From: Methylophaga frappieri
GTDB taxonomy: Bacteria > Pseudomonadota > Gammaproteobacteria > Nitrosococcales > Methylophagaceae
Assembly (NCBI RefSeq): GCF_000260965.1
Contig: NC_017856.1
Span: 930,001-962,000, forward strand
Reading direction: 5' to 3'
Length of the DNA stretch: 32,000 nt
Part shown: piece after piece, positions 5,929 to 32,000 of the stretch
How positions within the stretch are numbered: position 1 is the stretch's first letter
Layout: every line of letters begins with the position of its first letter
The notes under the pieces: generated by a model
Database searches by the model: none
Seen by the model: only the letters and a program-made list of their open reading frames with translations
What the model was told of the DNA's origin: nothing
Program-made: the position numbers and the translations under genes

Positions 5929-6861
5929 TTACTGCTTTTCAATTGACTTCGCATTATCCAAAGGAAGTTTGCGAAAATTAAACCATTGTTCTGTTATACC
6001 AAACGTTGCCAATAAACTGGCCATTTGTGGCGTTACCAATACCAATAACACATACATGGCTATCAACCAGCCCATCGCTTTCTGTTTTTGTTTGACAAGC
6101 GCATGCACGATAGCAATACCTTGTAACGTAAACAGCAACAACATCACCGGTAGCATATCGGCAAGCACAGGCAGCGCATCTAACATGCCACTGATTGACA
6201 AGACCATCAAAATGGCGGTTGCCACTGCTGGAACTTTGCCAAGTTTCAGGGAGCGAAACTCTTCCCCAAATGCCCCTGGCTCATAAAGCGAGGCCTGCCA
6301 AGCACGGCCAATCAATACCGCAACAATCGCATTAAACACGATAGCTGCGGCAAACAAGCCCGTCATTACCGTCGACAAGTTGGCAAACACGGCCTCTGTT
6401 TCGGAAACGCTTAATTGCCATCCCGGCTGATCCAATAACAACGCCACGAAAGGTTGCAACGTGGTTTGCCACCAGGCTGCCGGACTCGCCACCAGCACAT
6501 GCACGGCCGCAACACCAATCAGACCTATCAGGCCCGCCGTGATTAAAGCTTTTGCCAATGAGCGACTGAAACCCAGTACCAGGGTAATCAGATACACAGG
6601 CAACCAGGACGACACAAACAGTATCACCGCCAGTAGCGGTTGACTGAATATCCAGGTTGCGGCCAAGGTAAAGACCAGCAACGCCACCAGTAACACTTTC
6701 GCGCCTTCTCGTGGCCCCGTGCGCAGTGTTGCCAGCACCAGCAACCCGCTAGCAAGATAATTCAATGGTGGCAAAAATAATGCTGTCACCGCCAAAAAAC
6801 TCGCCGTTATTGCCGCTTGCCAGCGACCCTGCATGGCAAAATCTGCCAAGTTACGCAACAT
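5929..6861 (-). CDS. Polytopic inner-membrane protein (DUF2232/YybS-like) embedded in the rpsF-rpsR-rplI operon
   Basis: 310 aa with about 8 hydrophobic helices. It lies between rpsR and rplI, where DUF2232 proteins are found in several lineages. The family call rests on context and topology only. Confidence 0.55.
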
Positions 6862-26227: not shown

Positions 26228-26244
26228 GTTAATCTACTTGGCAA

Positions 26245-26276
26245 TAAAAAAGGCGTCTTAGGGCGCCTTTTTTATT
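26245..26276 (+). terminator. Rho-independent terminator; last recognisable host feature before the island
   Basis: aaaaaaggcg-tcttagg-gcgcctttttt is followed by 'at'. It lies immediately 3' of the SRPBCC gene. Confidence 0.8.
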
Positions 26277-26450
26277 TCACCATGACTCCAGCCCGGTACT
26301 GCGCTGGACTACGCCAAGGCTTGATACAGCAGGTTTATCAATGACTTAGGCGAGTTCATCATATGCCGGTGCTTTCCGAAACTTGACCTGACTTTCCCTC
26401 TACTGGCCCCTAGAAGGCTCCTGGGAACCGGGTCTTTCCAAGGAGTCATC

Positions 26451-27653
26451 ATGGCAAAAATCAAACTCACCAAGTCCGCTGTCGATGCGGCACACCCCCA
26501 GGCGCAGGCCGTCGAACTCCGGGATACGTTGGTTCCCGGCTTCTTGTGCAAGATTACCCCGTCGGGCCGCAAGGTGTTCATGCTCCAGTACCGGACGAAC
26601 GCTGGCGAGCGCCGCAAGCCCGCCTTGGGTCAGTACGGGGAACTGACCGTCGAACAGGCCCGTTCGCTCGCGCAAGAATGGCTGGCCCAGGTACGCCGGG
26701 GTGGTGATCCCGGCGCAGCCAAGACGGAAGCACGCAAAGCGCCCACCGTCGAAGAGTTGTGCAAGAAGTTCATGGAGGACCACTCCAAGAAGCGCAACAA
26801 GCCCAGCACCCGAGTCGGCTATCAAGGTGTCATCGACCGCTGCATCATCCCGTTGTTGGGCCGCAAGAAGGTCCACGACGTGAAGCGGCCTGACATTGCC
26901 GGACTGATGGAAAAGCTTTCCTACAAGCAGACCGAGGCGAACAAGGCGTTCAGCATCCTGCGCAAGATGTTCAATTTGGCTGAGGTGTGGGGCTATCGGC
27001 CTGACGGCACCAATCCCTGCCGCCATGTCCCAATGTTCCCTGCCGGCAAGTCCACCCACCTTATCAGCGACGAGGACATGGGAAAACTTTTCCGGCAGCT
27101 CGACAAGATCGAGGCCGAGGGGCTGGAGAACTACGTCATCCCGTTGGCGATCCGCCTGCAATTCGAGTTTGCCGGCCGCCGTGGCGAAATCGTCTCGCTC
27201 GAATGGGAATGGATCGATCTGGAAAACCGCCGCGTCGTCTGGCCTGACAGCAAGACCGGCGGTATGTCCAAGCCCATCAGCGAGGAAGCCTACCGGCTGC
27301 TTTCGACGGCGCCGAGGCAGGAAGGCAATCCTTACGTCCTGCCGTCGCCGCGCCATCCAGGGCAACACCTGACCACGGGCGAGTATTACGGCGGCTGGAG
27401 CCGTGCGCTCAAAGCGGCGGGGGCAACGCATGTGGGGACGCACGGCATCCGCCACCGCTCGGCGACCGACATTGCCAATTCGGGTATCCCGGTCAAGGTC
27501 GGCATGGCCCTGACGGCGCACAAGACCGTGGTGATGTTCATGCGCTACGTCCACACCGAGGACAAGCCCGTGCGGGAAGCCGCCGAACTGGTGGCGAATC
27601 GACGCAAGTCGGTCGTCAGCATGCATCAAGAACCGAAAGAGGTGACCGCATGA
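26451..27653 (+). CDS. int: Tyrosine-type site-specific integrase (P4-like, N-terminal DUF4102 arm-binding domain)
   Basis: AAGGAG RBS. The N-terminus is LTKSAVDAA...ELRDTLVPGFLCKITPSGRKVFMLQYRTNAGERRKPALGQYGELTVEQAR (DUF4102 pattern). The catalytic region carries R (FAGRRGEI), HGIRHRSAT (HxxR) and the Tyr in MFMRYVH. Confidence 0.92.
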   Translation: MAKIKLTKSAVDAAHPQAQAVELRDTLVPGFLCKITPSGRKVFMLQYRTNAGERRKPALGQYGELTVEQARSLAQEWLAQVRRGGDPGAAKTEARKAPTVEELCKKFMEDHSKKRNKPSTRVGYQGVIDRCIIPLLGRKKVHDVKRPDIAGLMEKLSYKQTEANKAFSILRKMFNLAEVWGYRPDGTNPCRHVPMFPAGKSTHLISDEDMGKLFRQLDKIEAEGLENYVIPLAIRLQFEFAGRRGEIVSLEWEWIDLENRRVVWPDSKTGGMSKPISEEAYRLLSTAPRQEGNPYVLPSPRHPGQHLTTGEYYGGWSRALKAAGATHVGTHGIRHRSATDIANSGIPVKVGMALTAHKTVVMFMRYVHTEDKPVREAAELVANRRKSVVSMHQEPKEVTA

Positions 27654-27712: not shown

Positions 27713-27791
27713 CTCAGTGGCCATCACCGCCTGCGTATCGTACTAAGCACTGGAAAAGTGTGCCCGTTTCGGGTATAGTTTGAAGGTCAAG

Positions 27792-28175
27792 ATGACGCGC
27801 ATCCTCAAACGAAAGGATTTTGCGCGGTGGCAGGCGGGCGAAAAGCTGTCCGATGCCGCCTTGTGCAAAGCGGTTCAGGAGATGGAAAGCGGTCTGATTG
27901 ACGCGGACTTGGGCGGCTTCCTTTACAAGAAACGGGTTGCCCGCCCTGGTGGTGGCAAGAGTGGCGGCTACCGCACGTTATTGTCGGCCCGGATCGGCAG
28001 CCGCTATGTGTTCCTGCATGGGTTCCCCAAGAGCGACAAGGCGAACATTACGCAGGACGAGAAGAAGGCACTGCAATTCGCCGGCAAGGTGTTCCTGGAA
28101 CTGTCCGCCGAAGCATTGTCGAAGGCGTTGCAGTCAGGCGTGTTATTGGAGGTGCATTGTGAGCAAGATCATTGA
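27792..28175 (+). CDS. RelE/HigB-like type II toxin (PF06296-type RelE family)
   Basis: RILKRKDFARW...LIDADLGGFLYKKRVARPGGGKSGGYRTLLSARIGSRYVFLHGFPKSDKANI contains the GKSGGYR motif and the 'yGF.K..k.Ni' block typical of this toxin family. The ATG at 27792 is preferred over the TTG at 27780. Confidence 0.8.
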   Translation: MTRILKRKDFARWQAGEKLSDAALCKAVQEMESGLIDADLGGFLYKKRVARPGGGKSGGYRTLLSARIGSRYVFLHGFPKSDKANITQDEKKALQFAGKVFLELSAEALSKALQSGVLLEVHCEQDH

Positions 28176-28461
28176 ATCCCTGCGTGGCGATCTGGCCGCG
28201 CTCCACGAAGCGGGAGCGATCGGCAAGGTAACGATGCGCGAGTTCGACGCAATCTGCCCGCCGCCGGTGCGGGAGTTCAGTGCTTTCGATATCAAGCGGC
28301 TGCGTGAAGCCTTGAAGTTTAGCCAGCCGGTGTTCGCTCTTCATCTACACACGTCGGCCTCGACCGTGCGCAAGTGGGAACAAGGCGAAACCCATCCCAC
28401 GGGGCCAGCGCTCAAACTGCTCAACGTCATCGCCGACAAGGGCCTGCAGGCCATCATCTGA
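28159..28461 (+). CDS. XRE-family HTH antitoxin (NadS/HigA-like)
   Basis: The GTG at 28159 overlaps the toxin 3' end by 17 nt. IKRLREALKFSQPVFALHLHTSASTVRKWEQGETHPTGPALKLLNVI is the HTH + 'WEqG...PsGpA..LL' signature of antitoxins paired with PF06296 toxins. The N-terminal part of the track ORF (27898-28158) is an out-of-frame overlap with the toxin and is not coding. Confidence 0.8.
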   Translation: MSKIIESLRGDLAALHEAGAIGKVTMREFDAICPPPVREFSAFDIKRLREALKFSQPVFALHLHTSASTVRKWEQGETHPTGPALKLLNVIADKGLQAII

Positions 28462-28483
28462 TGCCTGACGAGGGAGACAGGCA

Positions 28484-29302
28484 TTGGCGACGCGAATTAC
28501 CCCTTTCAACTCACAGCATCTTGAAGCCGCCTGCCGCGTGCTCGCCGATACCGAACGCGGTCTGAGCGGTACACAGATCGAGCGGCTGCTGCAGGAAATC
28601 GAGGTTGCCGACACGTCGCCCGGCATGACAAAGTGGAAGCGGTTGTTCAATGCGCTGGCCGGTGCGCAGAACCACCACCAGATCGGCAACCATCTCATCA
28701 TGTTCATCAACCGCGCGATGAACCCGGTGAACTACGCCCGCGATCCCGCGACGTTCGCTTGGCGGCGCGACGAACTCAATGTCGTCCTTGCCTTCTCCGG
28801 TTTCTACGTGCGCGATGACGGCAAGGTTGCTCACGCCGATAAGGCCACGACGCTTGATGCCGCCCGCGCCCGCGCGGGACGACTCAAGGCCGCACTGGAA
28901 AGCCGCGTCGTCCATGCGGAAGTGCTGAACTACTGCCGCGCCGAGTTGCTGGAGGAAAACTACTTCCATGCCGTGTTCGAGGCAACGAAAGGTGTTGCGG
29001 AGCGGATTCGCCTGCTGTCGGGCCTGAACGGCGACGGCGCGGACTTGGTGAACAAGGCATTCGCAGGCCAGCAACCCGTTCTCGCCTTGGGACCGCTCAC
29101 CACCGAGTCCGAAAAGAGCGAGCAGAAAGGCTTTGCCAACCTGCTGATCGGCTTATTTGGCGCCGTGCGCAATCCGCTGGCCCATGCGCCCAAGACGAAT
29201 TGGCCCATGTCCGAACAGGACGCACTGGACATCCTGACGCTGGTATCGCTGATTCACCGCAAGCTGGATGGCACCACGAAATTAGCGGCCGTATCGCCGT
29301 AA
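28484..29302 (+). CDS. TIGR02391 (Hypoth_Ymh) family protein
   Basis: TTG start with a GAGGGAGA RBS 6-7 nt upstream. The C-terminal domain is YFHAVFEATKGVAERIRLLSGLNGDGADLVNKAFAG...SEKSEQKGFANLLIGLFGAVRNPLAHAPK...EQDALDILTLVSLIHRKL, which carries the Ymh signature including RNP.AH. The N-terminal half is typical of full-length members (about 270 aa). Confidence 0.75.
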   Translation: MATRITPFNSQHLEAACRVLADTERGLSGTQIERLLQEIEVADTSPGMTKWKRLFNALAGAQNHHQIGNHLIMFINRAMNPVNYARDPATFAWRRDELNVVLAFSGFYVRDDGKVAHADKATTLDAARARAGRLKAALESRVVHAEVLNYCRAELLEENYFHAVFEATKGVAERIRLLSGLNGDGADLVNKAFAGQQPVLALGPLTTESEKSEQKGFANLLIGLFGAVRNPLAHAPKTNWPMSEQDALDILTLVSLIHRKLDGTTKLAAVSP

Positions 29303-29315
29303 GTGAGAGACAGGA

Positions 29316-30599
29316 ATGGACGAGGCGATCGTTGTCTTCTCTCGAAAAGGGATTTTCCAGACCACGATTGCCGCGCGCGACGTTCGCAGCCGGGAACATG
29401 CGCGCAAGCTGTGGCCCTTGGTGTCTCCAGGCGCAGAGCGCCAGATGGTGACATGGGTCAGCCCCTCCTTTGAAAGCGGGAAGCTGCGTCGGCGATCCCA
29501 TTTCCGCGTACTTCCTGCCCAGCACACCTTTAACCCCAAAGCGCACTTCGACGATGAAGAAGCCAGCCGATGGCGCGCCGTGCAGGAAAGTCCTGAACAC
29601 CGGCGGGCGAAAGAACTTGTCGCGGCCGAACTCTCACGACGTTTGAATGCCGGGCTTGCGATGCCGTGGGCGTTCAAGGATATGGATGCGTCGGACTATC
29701 CGCTGGAAGGCAACTTGTTGCTCGGCGCCGACCAGGTGGCAACCGAGCATCCCCTGGAGACGCCATTCGGCAGCAAATTCCGGCTCGACGTTGCCGTGCT
29801 CGGCCCCCCGGTCCAGGCTGAACCGATGGTGCTGGGCGGCGTTGAAATCGAACTCGGCCACGCCTTCGACGGGCGCAAGGCTCTTATCGGGAAGTCGCTC
29901 GGATTCCCGCTCATCTCCATCGACATCACCGAGATGACGCTGGACGAACTCACGCCCGAGTGGGCACGGCAGGTATTGACTGCGACCACGCGGAGCCACG
30001 AGCAAGGACGCCGGCAGACCTACATCTATCTCCACGACCTGCTGTACCCCCTCTACGCGCAATTGCCGGCGTTTCTGGACGACGAGCAGCGCCATCAGTT
30101 CCTTGTGTTTGCCGACGATGAGACCCTGAACAAGTTGGTGCGCTGGATGAACCTGCTCGCCGAAAAGCTGGAGTACCCGAAGGGTACGGTCGCCGTTGCC
30201 TTGGTCAATGGCAAGAACGAACAGTCGCGCAAGATGCTGGAACGCGCGGGACAAGTCGTTGGCCCCGACTGGAGCGAGTTCAACGGCCAGCGATGCCTAC
30301 GACTGACCCTGCCGCGTCCCAAAGGCCCGGCGGATCTCCAGGCCCATCGCTTCCACATGACGATGGCGCGCATCCTGCTGTCGCACACTGATTCGCTCGT
30401 TGGCTACAAGTATTGCAACGGCGTAGACAACCACCACCCTGAAGAAGACGTGTGGGTTGCGCATCGCTGGATCGCCGACTTGAAAACCCATACCCAGCAT
30501 CGCGTCTTGCCGAAGCGGCTGGCTGAACCGATCAACAGATTGATCGCGGTGGTTTCGGACCTGCATCGCAATCACGCGGCTGCCAGCCAAGAGGCGTGA
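29316..30599 (+). CDS. Hypothetical protein with a CoiA-like PD-(D/E)xK nuclease core and an unassigned C-terminal half
   Basis: Starts 13 nt after the Ymh gene. Residues about 60-200 contain SHF...ESPEHRRAKELVAAEL...EHPLETPFGSKFRLDVAVLG...GGVEIELGH...GFPLISID. This parallels CoiA-family blocks (HFAH, ESxxHxxxKxxL, E...RPDV, IEIQxS, GxPVxWI). Residues about 215-427 are not recognisable. Confidence 0.6.
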   Translation: MDEAIVVFSRKGIFQTTIAARDVRSREHARKLWPLVSPGAERQMVTWVSPSFESGKLRRRSHFRVLPAQHTFNPKAHFDDEEASRWRAVQESPEHRRAKELVAAELSRRLNAGLAMPWAFKDMDASDYPLEGNLLLGADQVATEHPLETPFGSKFRLDVAVLGPPVQAEPMVLGGVEIELGHAFDGRKALIGKSLGFPLISIDITEMTLDELTPEWARQVLTATTRSHEQGRRQTYIYLHDLLYPLYAQLPAFLDDEQRHQFLVFADDETLNKLVRWMNLLAEKLEYPKGTVAVALVNGKNEQSRKMLERAGQVVGPDWSEFNGQRCLRLTLPRPKGPADLQAHRFHMTMARILLSHTDSLVGYKYCNGVDNHHPEEDVWVAHRWIADLKTHTQHRVLPKRLAEPINRLIAVVSDLHRNHAAASQEA

Positions 30600-30676: not shown

Positions 30677-31465
30677 TCAGTCCGTAGTCGGTTTTGAGGC
30701 TCTTTTCCGCGGGGCCGAAGAAGGCAAAGACGGCAAGCACTCAAACAAGCGTTCTGCATAGACGAACCCCATCCGTCTGACCGCGCCCTGATCGAAATAC
30801 AGCAGCCAAGCGGCAAGTAATGCCAGCGAAATGAGCAGTGTCAAGCCTGCGGCAAGCCCCGGATCGGCAAGGTGCTCTAGGTTAAAATGAGGAGGTACTA
30901 CCTGCAGAATCTTTGCAATCAGCAATCCGTAGACGATGCCCAGGAGGCACGACACGATGCCGGCAGGCTTCATTGCCAGCATATTGCGGTGAAATCCGTA
31001 GGCGATGTTCTCTTTCAGCAAGAGCTGCTTGTTGGAACGCGTGAGTTCGCGAAGCCGCTTTGTGGCGCCAACGTAGATGTCGTCTGCCTTGTCAGGGCTT
31101 GCTGATTCTTCTTCTGCCGTTGGCATGGCGATGCCCAGCTTGGCCGTGATCGCCGTGTGGTAGCGCTGCTTGCTGACACCATCGAGAAACTTGTCGCGAT
31201 GGCGTAACGCGATGGTTGTCGGCATACCGCCCCACCTTGCAACCAGGATCTCTTCAAGCTTCTTCCCGCGCCCGCGAGCTACGCTCGCAAGCGCATAAAT
31301 GGCACCGCAGCCACCAAGCAAGCCGATCACGCCTGTAAGTACCGGGTGCTTTGCGCCGTAGACGCACAACAAAGGAACGAGCAGCGGTAACGCTACAAGA
31401 AGTCCTGGGATTACGCGCGCCTTGCGCTCATAGGGGTCTTTGACCAGTTCAAAAATAGTTGTCAT
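30677..31465 (-). CDS. 4-TM membrane protein of unknown family (candidate effector downstream of the WYL regulator)
   Basis: 262 aa. TM pairs lie at about residues 17-62 (VIPGLLVALPLLVPLLCVYG / VLTGVIGLLGGCGAIYALASV) and about 166-225 (AGIVSCLLGIVYGLLIAKIL / AAGLTLLISLALLAAWLLYF), flanking a soluble helical region of about 100 aa. The start lies 6 nt after the WYL gene stop. Confidence 0.65.
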   Translation of the reverse strand: MTTIFELVKDPYERKARVIPGLLVALPLLVPLLCVYGAKHPVLTGVIGLLGGCGAIYALASVARGRGKKLEEILVARWGGMPTTIALRHRDKFLDGVSKQRYHTAITAKLGIAMPTAEEESASPDKADDIYVGATKRLRELTRSNKQLLLKENIAYGFHRNMLAMKPAGIVSCLLGIVYGLLIAKILQVVPPHFNLEHLADPGLAAGLTLLISLALLAAWLLYFDQGAVRRMGFVYAERLFECLPSLPSSAPRKRASKPTTD

Positions 31466-31471
31466 GGGCGT

Positions 31472-32000
31472 TCAGCTTTGGGCCGACAAGGCATCAATAT
31501 AGGGTTGAATTTCATCGCGGTTCTTTAAAGTGATCTGCTGCGCGAGAGGGTCGGGTGCTTCCTTGGTATGCAAGCCCAAACGCCTCAGCGTGTAATACAA
31601 AAACGCTTGGCGGCATGGAAGTTTGACCTGTCCGTCTTCCATTCCATAGTCCAACTCCAGGACTCGTTTCTTGGCAGCGGGCAAATCGGGGTGCGGTGCA
31701 AGCACCAGCGTCAAGAGAGTTTGCCAGTGCGAATCTTGGCTGGCGTCCACTTGGCTCGCTTCGAAGCCGTCGATGCGCAGGATTCGGGCGAGGACGAAAT
31801 CACTGAAGCGCTGGCGTTTGTGGCAAAACGCGCGCATGTGCCAGCGAAAACCGTCATTACCAAGGGCGTGGGGAGACAGCAGACGAACCGATTCGTCCAT
31901 GGACGTCATGGACTGGTAGCTCACCCAAATGGCTTCCTGCTGCCGAATTGCCCGGACCACTGCTTCGACGGTCTGTTCATTGATCGTGCGCCAGGGGGAC
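31472..32000 (-). CDS. WYL-domain transcriptional regulator (BrxR/CapW/PafBC-like), 5' end outside the window
   Basis: The frame is open to the window edge (SPWRTINEQTVEAVVRAIRQQEAIWVSYQSM...). WYL-domain pattern: IWVSYQSMTS...RLLSPHALGNDGFRWHMRAFCHKRQRFSDFVLARI. This is followed by a C-terminal extension (WCX-like). The N-terminal HTH is presumably beyond 32000. Confidence 0.75.
   Translation of the reverse strand, partial: SPWRTINEQTVEAVVRAIRQQEAIWVSYQSMTSMDESVRLLSPHALGNDGFRWHMRAFCHKRQRFSDFVLARILRIDGFEASQVDASQDSHWQTLLTLVLAPHPDLPAAKKRVLELDYGMEDGQVKLPCRQAFLYYTLRRLGLHTKEAPDPLAQQITLKNRDEIQPYIDALSAQS

Follow-up and report, generated by a model that had tools for sequence, protein, structure and literature searches.

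We analysed a 32,000-nt stretch of Methylophaga frappieri DNA (NC_017856.1, positions 930,001 to 962,000; hereafter the window, numbered from its first letter) that holds two adjacent genes on the plus strand, ymh (gene 1) and a 427-codon gene (gene 2). We favour, with moderate confidence, a reading in which a broad-host-range integrative element carries stacked defence-type modules here, separable from one another, in the part of its cargo nearest the integrase. Gene 1 was known before, and the pair is a reshuffled variant of the known PD-lambda-3 locus (genes A, B and C) rather than a new obligate two-gene system. The novelty of the locus is that A is replaced or missing and an unrelated protein occupies the C slot. 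What is truly unexplored is the family of 427-residue proteins to which gene 2 belongs. The original prediction had described two co-directional open reading frames separated by 13 nt, and both are confirmed at 28484-29302 and 29316-30599.

Gene 1 (28484-29302, plus strand) starts at a TTG codon and encodes a 272-residue orthologue of PD-lambda-3 B, with an AbiJ_NTD3-like N-terminal domain and a Ymh-type HEPN domain. The protein matches the PADLOC model PD-Lambda-3_B (PDLC03987) with 592 bits over residues 3-268, is 89% identical to E. coli WP_000619352, and is matched over its full length by phrog_6297. Profiles Hypoth_Ymh (PF09509, E 1.6e-45) and TIGR02391 (E 2.8e-36) cover residues 142-263. 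A regular-expression search of the translation places the HEPN Rx4H motif at R229-N-P-L-A-H234 (29168-29185, plus strand), and the motif is also kept in the E. coli orthologue. The TIGR02391/Hypoth_Ymh assignment and the RNP.AH signature named in the original prediction are both borne out by these matches. The profile match and the conserved Rx4-6H motif place gene 1 in the Ymh family of the HEPN superfamily.

Ymh is a recognised HEPN family with an Rx4-6H RNase motif (Anantharaman et al. 2013, PMC3710099), and HHpred recognises AbiJ_NTD3 at the N-terminal end of B in E. coli (Vassallo et al. 2022, PMC9519451). The description of gene 1 as rare and of unknown function is outdated, because Ymh is a HEPN family and gene 1 is an orthologue of PD-lambda-3 B. 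The literature on TIGR02391, PF09509 and AbiJ_NTD3 yielded nothing mechanistic beyond the 2013 study. From the analysis of Anantharaman et al. and the abortive-infection behaviour of PD-lambda-3, gene 1 most likely encodes an AbiJ-like HEPN abortive-infection RNase. Single-protein abortive-infection genes of the AbiJ type likewise combine an AbiJ N-terminal domain with a HEPN domain; in gene 1 these are an AbiJ_NTD3-like N-terminus and a C-terminal HEPN domain carrying Rx4H, and full-length homologues of gene 1 also occur as single genes in prophage lysogeny modules. Gene 1 differs in that its HEPN domain belongs to the Ymh family rather than the AbiJ family, and a function for B alone is presumed. 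Ymh had been cast as a sensor or adaptor for gene 2. With its own catalytic HEPN motif and AbiJ-type sensor domain it fits an effector instead, and is better read as a HEPN RNase that carries its own sensor.

PD-lambda-3 was described as three proteins from ECOR28, encoded on 2759 bp and labelled 'Nuclease, HEPN' (Vassallo et al. 2022, PMC9519451); 2759 bp is the exact combined length of A, B and C. We took the composition of the system from the supplementary tables of that paper, the main text having no searchable mention of it by name. Its HHpred results give Hypoth_Ymh and AbiJ_NTD3 in B, weak PD-(D/E)xK similarity in A and a beta-propeller in C, and its Table S4 names A and B only (PMC9519451). 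PADLOC also models the system through A and B only. PD-lambda-3 serves as an abortive-infection control in a later paper (PMC13190303). The system was discovered experimentally, and its protection against lambda-type phage by abortive infection is on record for the E. coli clone only. In E. coli, B is flanked by a 159-aa gene (PADLOC PD-Lambda-3_A, 331 bits) and by a 477-aa 'restriction endonuclease', the C protein, which shows Mrr_cat and beta-propeller signals.

The window locus resembles PD-lambda-3 in the co-directional operon position of B, in its short gaps and in the putative nuclease gene that follows B; the A gene is present in some of its relatives, in the order A-Ymh-gene 2. It differs in having a RelE/helix-turn-helix (HTH) pair in the upstream slot and no A, in that B is followed by a gene with no relation to the Mrr/beta-propeller protein, and in its host, here a methylotroph with an integrative element and not E. 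coli. No island protein has a PADLOC match to A, and tblastn searches of the whole window returned only E > 2 for A and E > 3 for C. Gene 2 occupies the position held in E. coli by the C nuclease, to which it shows no similarity (BLASTP E 1.9). Gene 2 as a divergent A or C was also considered and rejected: BLASTP is negative, and hhalign of the central domain of gene 2 against an alignment of A gives a probability of 0.65%. The original claim that the pairing lies outside named systems therefore holds in part: the Ymh-gene 2 pair is not in PADLOC v2, but gene 1 is PD-Lambda-3_B and gene 2 sits in the C slot.

In E. coli C8 (5804-5959 of locus L001; numbers prefixed L denote loci in our collection) and in L133, L136, L137 and L141, the C gene is a short N-terminal fragment and A and B are intact. 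The reduction of C beside intact A and B suggests that C is dispensable for keeping A and B.

Gene 2 (29316-30599, plus strand; UniProt I1YGP7_METFJ) starts at an ATG codon and encodes a 427-residue member of an unannotated family, predicted to have three structural parts. Searches of Pfam, NCBIfam, PADLOC (including its Shedu models) and PHROG gave no match, and a sequence-profile search of the PDB returned noise only (RAG2, E 2.7). A word search found 360 close relatives, every one labelled 'hypothetical', and a search of the searchable literature by gene-2 accession numbers gave no paper. The family comprises 167 representatives at 50% clustering, with nearly all full-length members between 410 and 430 aa, and the identical gene-2 protein is present on 531 contigs across Pseudomonadota. 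It has no relative in 50,697 phage records and is absent from PADLOC v2.0.0, among catalogues to 2023. The 'CoiA-type' label originally given to gene 2 is not upheld. CoiA (PF06054) gives no profile match to gene 2 at E <= 0.1, and 57 family members show neither CoiA nor any consistent Pfam family even at E <= 1; the likeness to CoiA is confined to the proposed PD-(D/E)xK fold. The CoiA-like match reported by Vassallo et al. (2022, PMC9519451) is in PD-lambda-4 B rather than in PD-lambda-3.

An alignment of 57 family sequences, reaching down to 24% identity, shows F63, W118, G132, D158, E177 and Y364 to be invariant. H95, E144, E179 and K188 are nearly invariant, with E179 and K188 at least 90% conserved. 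D158 and E177, which the original prediction had picked as key residues, are thus both invariant. The AlphaFold2 model built with this alignment has a pLDDT of 89.8 and a pTM of 0.89 and divides into an N-terminal beta-rich part (approximately residues 1-70), a central part (approximately 93-205) and a C-terminal alpha/beta part (approximately 235-427). The central part is a PD-(D/E)xK-like domain by predicted topology, conservation and Foldseek matches (residues 93-205; 29592-29930, plus strand). Its elements run in the order helix 93-112, strands 140-148, 154-163 and 171-179, helix 187-194 and strand 199-203. The second core strand carries D158, the third E177-x-E179, and the helix after it K188. 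In the model, gene 2 therefore has the alpha-beta-beta-beta-alpha-beta core of PD-(D/E)xK nucleases, with acidic residues on strands 2 and 3. The active site of BamHI is E77/D94/E111/E113, and we take the D158...E177-x-E179...K188 arrangement to resemble the BamHI-type D...ExE variant of the PD-(D/E)xK site.

Structural comparisons gave a consistent signal, and a weak one, with the trimmed central domain only. The full-length model matches nothing in the PDB or BFVD at E <= 0.001, its top hits being scattered ferredoxin-like or eIF4E folds with TM < 0.2. A separate model of residues 72-240 (pLDDT 84.5) gives a Foldseek top list that is almost entirely restriction-endonuclease-like, the matches being weak (E 0.019-1, TM about 0.4). 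At its head, with E 0.019-0.3, TM 0.39-0.48 and a probability of up to 0.98, stand TT1808 (1wdj), 9y1l, 3ijm, the nuclease domain of DrdV and the R2 restriction-like endonuclease; BsmI, BsaWI and AgeI are also listed. Among PD-(D/E)xK nucleases the TT1808/Uma2 type is nearest, and the central domain of gene 2 has their core topology; gene 2 differs from them in having no sequence-profile match, structural matches no better than E 0.019, and N-terminal beta-rich and C-terminal alpha/beta parts (the latter about 190 aa) that have no recognised counterpart. The restriction-endonuclease-like core claimed earlier is not confirmed: its support consists of the predicted topology, the conserved acidic residues and weak Foldseek matches. 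On this modelling, gene 2 is likely, though not proven, to be a PD-(D/E)xK-like metal-dependent nuclease, whose activity and targets are deduced from fold and motif.

In several other loci gene 2 lies among defence genes. Ten of the 10 neighbours sampled, from five loci that lack Ymh and one that has it (L047), match PADLOC defence models strongly. They include GajA/GajB of Gabija (L040, L047 and L061), DndB, PbeC/DndD, AbiEii and a CBASS SAVED-nuclease effector. Another gene-2 locus has an XhoI-family restriction-modification pair directly upstream, the copy on plasmid Rms163 lies among HipA, RES and GIY-YIG genes, and one distant homologue adjoins gyrB/recF. Shedu (SduA) is a single-gene nuclease defence with variable sensing domains. 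Gene 2 is also a single PD-(D/E)xK-type protein in defence islands, a likeness that is conceptual only; it differs in matching no PADLOC Shedu model. Various plasmids and Streptococcus prophage lysogeny modules carry full-length Ymh homologues (34-50% identity) that stand singly.

We observed two further Ymh arrangements. On a Cupriavidus pauculus plasmid (L153:3501-5798) a Ymh homologue (48% identity) precedes a Shedu nuclease gene by 48 nt, with a SIR2 gene after that, and on Agrobacterium Ti plasmids (L156:680-3813) ymh and the end of a gene for a type I restriction endonuclease overlap.

To compare loci, we assembled 61 loci with gene 2, taking a single genome for each species, and 80 metagenomic Ymh loci, and mapped all island proteins together with E. 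coli A and C onto them. Enough upstream sequence was available at 56 of the 61 gene-2 loci. An intact Ymh gene adjoins gene 2 in 30 of these, following RelE/HTH in 22, PD-lambda-3 A in six and another upstream context in two. Ymh is decayed, that is frameshifted or fragmentary, in six. The remaining 20 have no Ymh, and gene 2 is preceded directly by RelE/HTH in eight and by an unrelated context in 12. Viewed from the other gene, 75 of 113 Ymh loci have gene 2 downstream, 10 have PD-lambda-3 C or a fragment of it, 25 have neither, and three run into a contig end. Where Ymh has neither gene 2 nor C, it is often the last gene before convergent genes. None of the distant gene-2 homologues examined (34-52% identity; Pseudomonas plasmid Rms163 and metagenome contigs) has a Ymh neighbour. 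The synteny proposed for the pair is thus real in 30 of 56 gene-2 loci but is broken in the 20 that lack Ymh, the six with decayed copies and the distant homologues, and Ymh also occurs without gene 2.

DNA comparisons show that the homology blocks end at gene borders. The block running from the integrase through the toxin-antitoxin (TA) genes and Ymh to gene 2 stops less than 50 nt from the gene-2 stop codon, and Ymh is cleanly missing in L033 and L035. Three loci without Ymh (L014, L024 and L028) retain approximately 20 nt of the ymh 3' end (...GTATCGCCATAA...) before gene 2, around 5975-6000, and the loss of Ymh there is therefore secondary, by deletion or recombination inside the ymh 3' end. 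Identity between Ymh proteins from loci with and without gene 2 reaches 96%, and Ymh has thus not diverged according to partner.

In two Acinetobacter chromosomes (L053 and L059) gene 2 is broken into a piece with residues 1-253 and another with residues 200-400, which overlap, and of ymh just the final 70 codons stand before them. Twelve Acinetobacter plasmids (hits H22-H33) have this rearranged and probably decayed copy too, without annotation.

Each gene persists and spreads without the other, though they are often inherited as a block, which argues for gene 1 and gene 2 as independent or loosely cooperating layers. These could be, for example, a DNA-level nuclease and an RNA-level suicide backup. 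In gene 1, the N-terminal domain would silence the HEPN domain until a phage cue is received, and the HEPN domain would then act as an abortive-infection RNase. In gene 2, the N-terminal beta-rich and C-terminal alpha/beta parts may provide target recognition or regulation.

Several points weigh against separable modules. The 13-nt spacing argues for some functional link. The Ymh-gene 2 block is common to TA-type and A-type loci, which have differing upstream contexts, and the pair has diverged jointly in Acinetobacter rudis (L047; 74% identity for gene 2 and 80% for Ymh). Ymh recurs directly 5' of other nucleases, namely the Mrr/beta-propeller protein in E. coli, Shedu in Cupriavidus and the type I restriction enzyme in Agrobacterium. 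The nuclease assignment combines motif logic with weak structural matches (best Foldseek E 0.019, none <= 0.001), and a PD-lambda-3 B protein working alone is itself something we infer. The loci were sampled by similarity, and counts such as 30 of 56 are not unbiased frequencies. Tight spacing, a common block and the nucleases that recur after Ymh keep cooperative and guard-type (PrrC-like) readings alive.

The best surviving of the alternatives is an obligate two-gene system with Ymh as sensor or adaptor and the 427-aa nuclease as effector, or its close variant in which the two proteins form one complex. It draws on the 13-nt gap with no terminator between the genes, on the intact Ymh immediately upstream in 30 of 56 gene-2 loci, on the block common to TA-type and A-type loci, and on the retention of both genes at the Acinetobacter rudis level of divergence. 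Such a pair sits badly with how often each gene occurs by itself: 20 of 56 gene-2 loci have no Ymh and six a decayed one, all distant gene-2 homologues examined are without it, and at 25 of 113 Ymh loci both gene 2 and C are missing downstream, with no sign of partner-specific divergence in Ymh. Ymh also brings its own HEPN catalytic motif and AbiJ-type sensor domain. We regard an obligate pair as unlikely.

Somewhat more doubtful is a PD-lambda-3-family system with swapped parts, in which Ymh is a hub that needs both partners, RelE/HTH replaces A and gene 2 replaces C. Its mode would be guard-like and similar to PrrC/EcoprrI, the HEPN RNase firing once a phage inhibits the neighbouring nuclease. 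The gene order and short gaps of E. coli A-B-C are preserved, the A-Ymh-gene 2 arrangement is found in six genome loci and several metagenome loci, and Ymh lies upstream of, or overlaps, varied nucleases (Mrr/beta-propeller, gene 2, Shedu and the type I restriction enzyme). Functional coupling of HEPN proteins to restriction-modification has been proposed (Anantharaman et al., PMC3710099). Opposed to this, the PADLOC system model consists of A and B only, many A-B loci stop at B with convergent genes downstream, and E. coli C8 and four metagenome loci keep C only as a pseudogene or fragment. TA-Ymh loci exist without any downstream partner, and RelE/HTH is a self-contained TA pair that also stands directly before gene 2 where Ymh is missing.

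A bolder proposal, to which we give little credence, is that the 427-aa family is a new stand-alone anti-phage nuclease and that AbiJ_NTD3-Ymh HEPN proteins are portable guards placed before interchangeable nucleases of the Mrr/beta-propeller, 427-aa, Shedu and type I restriction kinds, triggering RNA-level suicide when a phage neutralises the nuclease. The N- and C-terminal parts of the 427-aa protein find no counterpart in solved structures or in predicted viral ones. Least probable is that gene 2 encodes no nuclease and plays no part in defence, being instead element cargo with a maintenance, exclusion, DNA-binding or regulatory role, its defence association reflecting common residence in variable regions: the lack of any sequence family match, of PDB or BFVD structural matches at E <= 0.001 and of relatives in the 50,697 phage records would suit this, as would the distant homologue beside gyrB/recF, but in an alpha-beta-beta-beta-alpha-beta core it is exactly strands 2 and 3 that bear the invariant acidic residues, the top domain fold matches are almost all restriction-endonuclease-like, all 10 sampled neighbours in six loci are PADLOC defence proteins, and gene 2 lies in the slot of the known nuclease component of PD-lambda-3.

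Across the loci compared, PD-lambda-3 is modular. B is combined with at least three upstream contexts (A, RelE/HTH and a 312-aa gene) and with several downstream ones (the C nuclease, the 427-aa family or nothing), and this modularity bears on which of the published PD-lambda-3 genes are really needed. The 427-aa family is widespread, has a confidently predicted fold, is conserved over its full length and has defence neighbours, and is a reasonable candidate for a single-gene defence nuclease. Unannotated nuclease-like genes are common in defence islands, and gene 2 is unsurprising in kind.

The 312-aa gene is a conserved reading frame (MATVTVSPIHFEDYSG.QFERLVFAYHVR...GQSGGDQGRDI) that lies directly 5' of PD-lambda-3 A in many loci (L091:2554-3492, L105:2547-3485, L122:2547-3485, L135:2477-3415 and E. 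coli C8 L001:3465-4403) and immediately before Ymh in L131:3042-3983 and L132:3042-3983. It has no Pfam match and may be an unlisted extra component of PD-lambda-3-type loci.

The spacer between gene 1 and gene 2, read from the sequence, occupies 29303-29315 (plus strand) and is overlapped by a purine-rich, Shine-Dalgarno-like stretch, GAGACAGGA, at 29302-29310. No terminator-like site is predicted on the plus strand within 28484-30599, and none separates relE, HTH, ymh and gene 2; 3' of gene 2 there is none that is convincing either. The genes relE, HTH, ymh and gene 2 are probably transcribed together. Near-identical short stretches precede both genes of the pair, GAGACAGGCA before ymh (28469-28483) and GAGACAGGAA before gene 2 (29300-29315), and may represent a ribosome-binding context common to both, or a joint at which recombination exchanges cassettes.

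The original prediction had placed the pair in integrase-linked, compositionally foreign DNA beside a TA module, and all of these features were recovered. GC content rises from approximately 0.46 to approximately 0.61 near position 26300. A tyrosine integrase gene (26451-27653, plus strand; Phage_integrase, Arm-DNA-bind_3 and Phage_int_SAM_3) marks the left end of the GC-rich island, and exact-sequence look-up finds the identical integrase on 474 contigs from many Pseudomonadota. The RelE-family toxin gene (27780-28175, plus strand; 131 aa; PF06296, E 5.5e-45, 152.9 bits) is followed by the gene for an HTH antitoxin of the Xre/NadS/MqsA-like type (28159-28461, plus strand; GTG start; HTH_3, E 4.3e-07, 30.3 bits, with a weak NadS match). 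The end of relE and the start of the HTH gene overlap by 17 nt, and the two have the layout of a type II TA system, with adjacent small toxin and DNA-binding antitoxin genes whose ends overlap. A consensus scan gives a sigma-70-like match just 5' of relE (27751-27779, plus strand; 9/12 matches), a possible promoter of the four-gene operon. Such sites are no more numerous than in shuffled sequence, and the only promoter-like match, this one before relE, is weak.

Downstream and convergent with gene 2 lies a gene for a 262-aa predicted membrane protein (30677-31465, minus strand), which has no match in Pfam, NCBIfam, PADLOC or PHROG and whose exact sequence is present on 605 contigs. It is followed by a gene for a 162-aa WYL-domain protein (31472-31960, minus strand; PF13280, E 1.7e-11; PADLOC WYL, E 1.8e-12). 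The two genes accompany Ymh and gene 2 in some loci (L003, L026, L027, L042, L048 and others) and may be further cargo or a further defence module.

Exact-sequence look-ups find the island proteins unchanged on hundreds of contigs from many Pseudomonadota, and we therefore regard the island as a broad-host-range integrative element. No near-identical DNA was found in E. coli genomes, and a distant search matched the ymh part only. CysB and MxaD flank the island in Methylophaga frappieri, and it begins directly after the host mxaD-like gene, in the region 26228-26450. The window holds no tRNA gene, and with none near the start of the island the integrase uses an attachment site that is not a tRNA gene. 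The element's right end falls beyond the window. A 409-aa open reading frame antisense to the integrase (26400-27629, minus strand), in the GC-rich stretch, is almost certainly spurious and not a gene.

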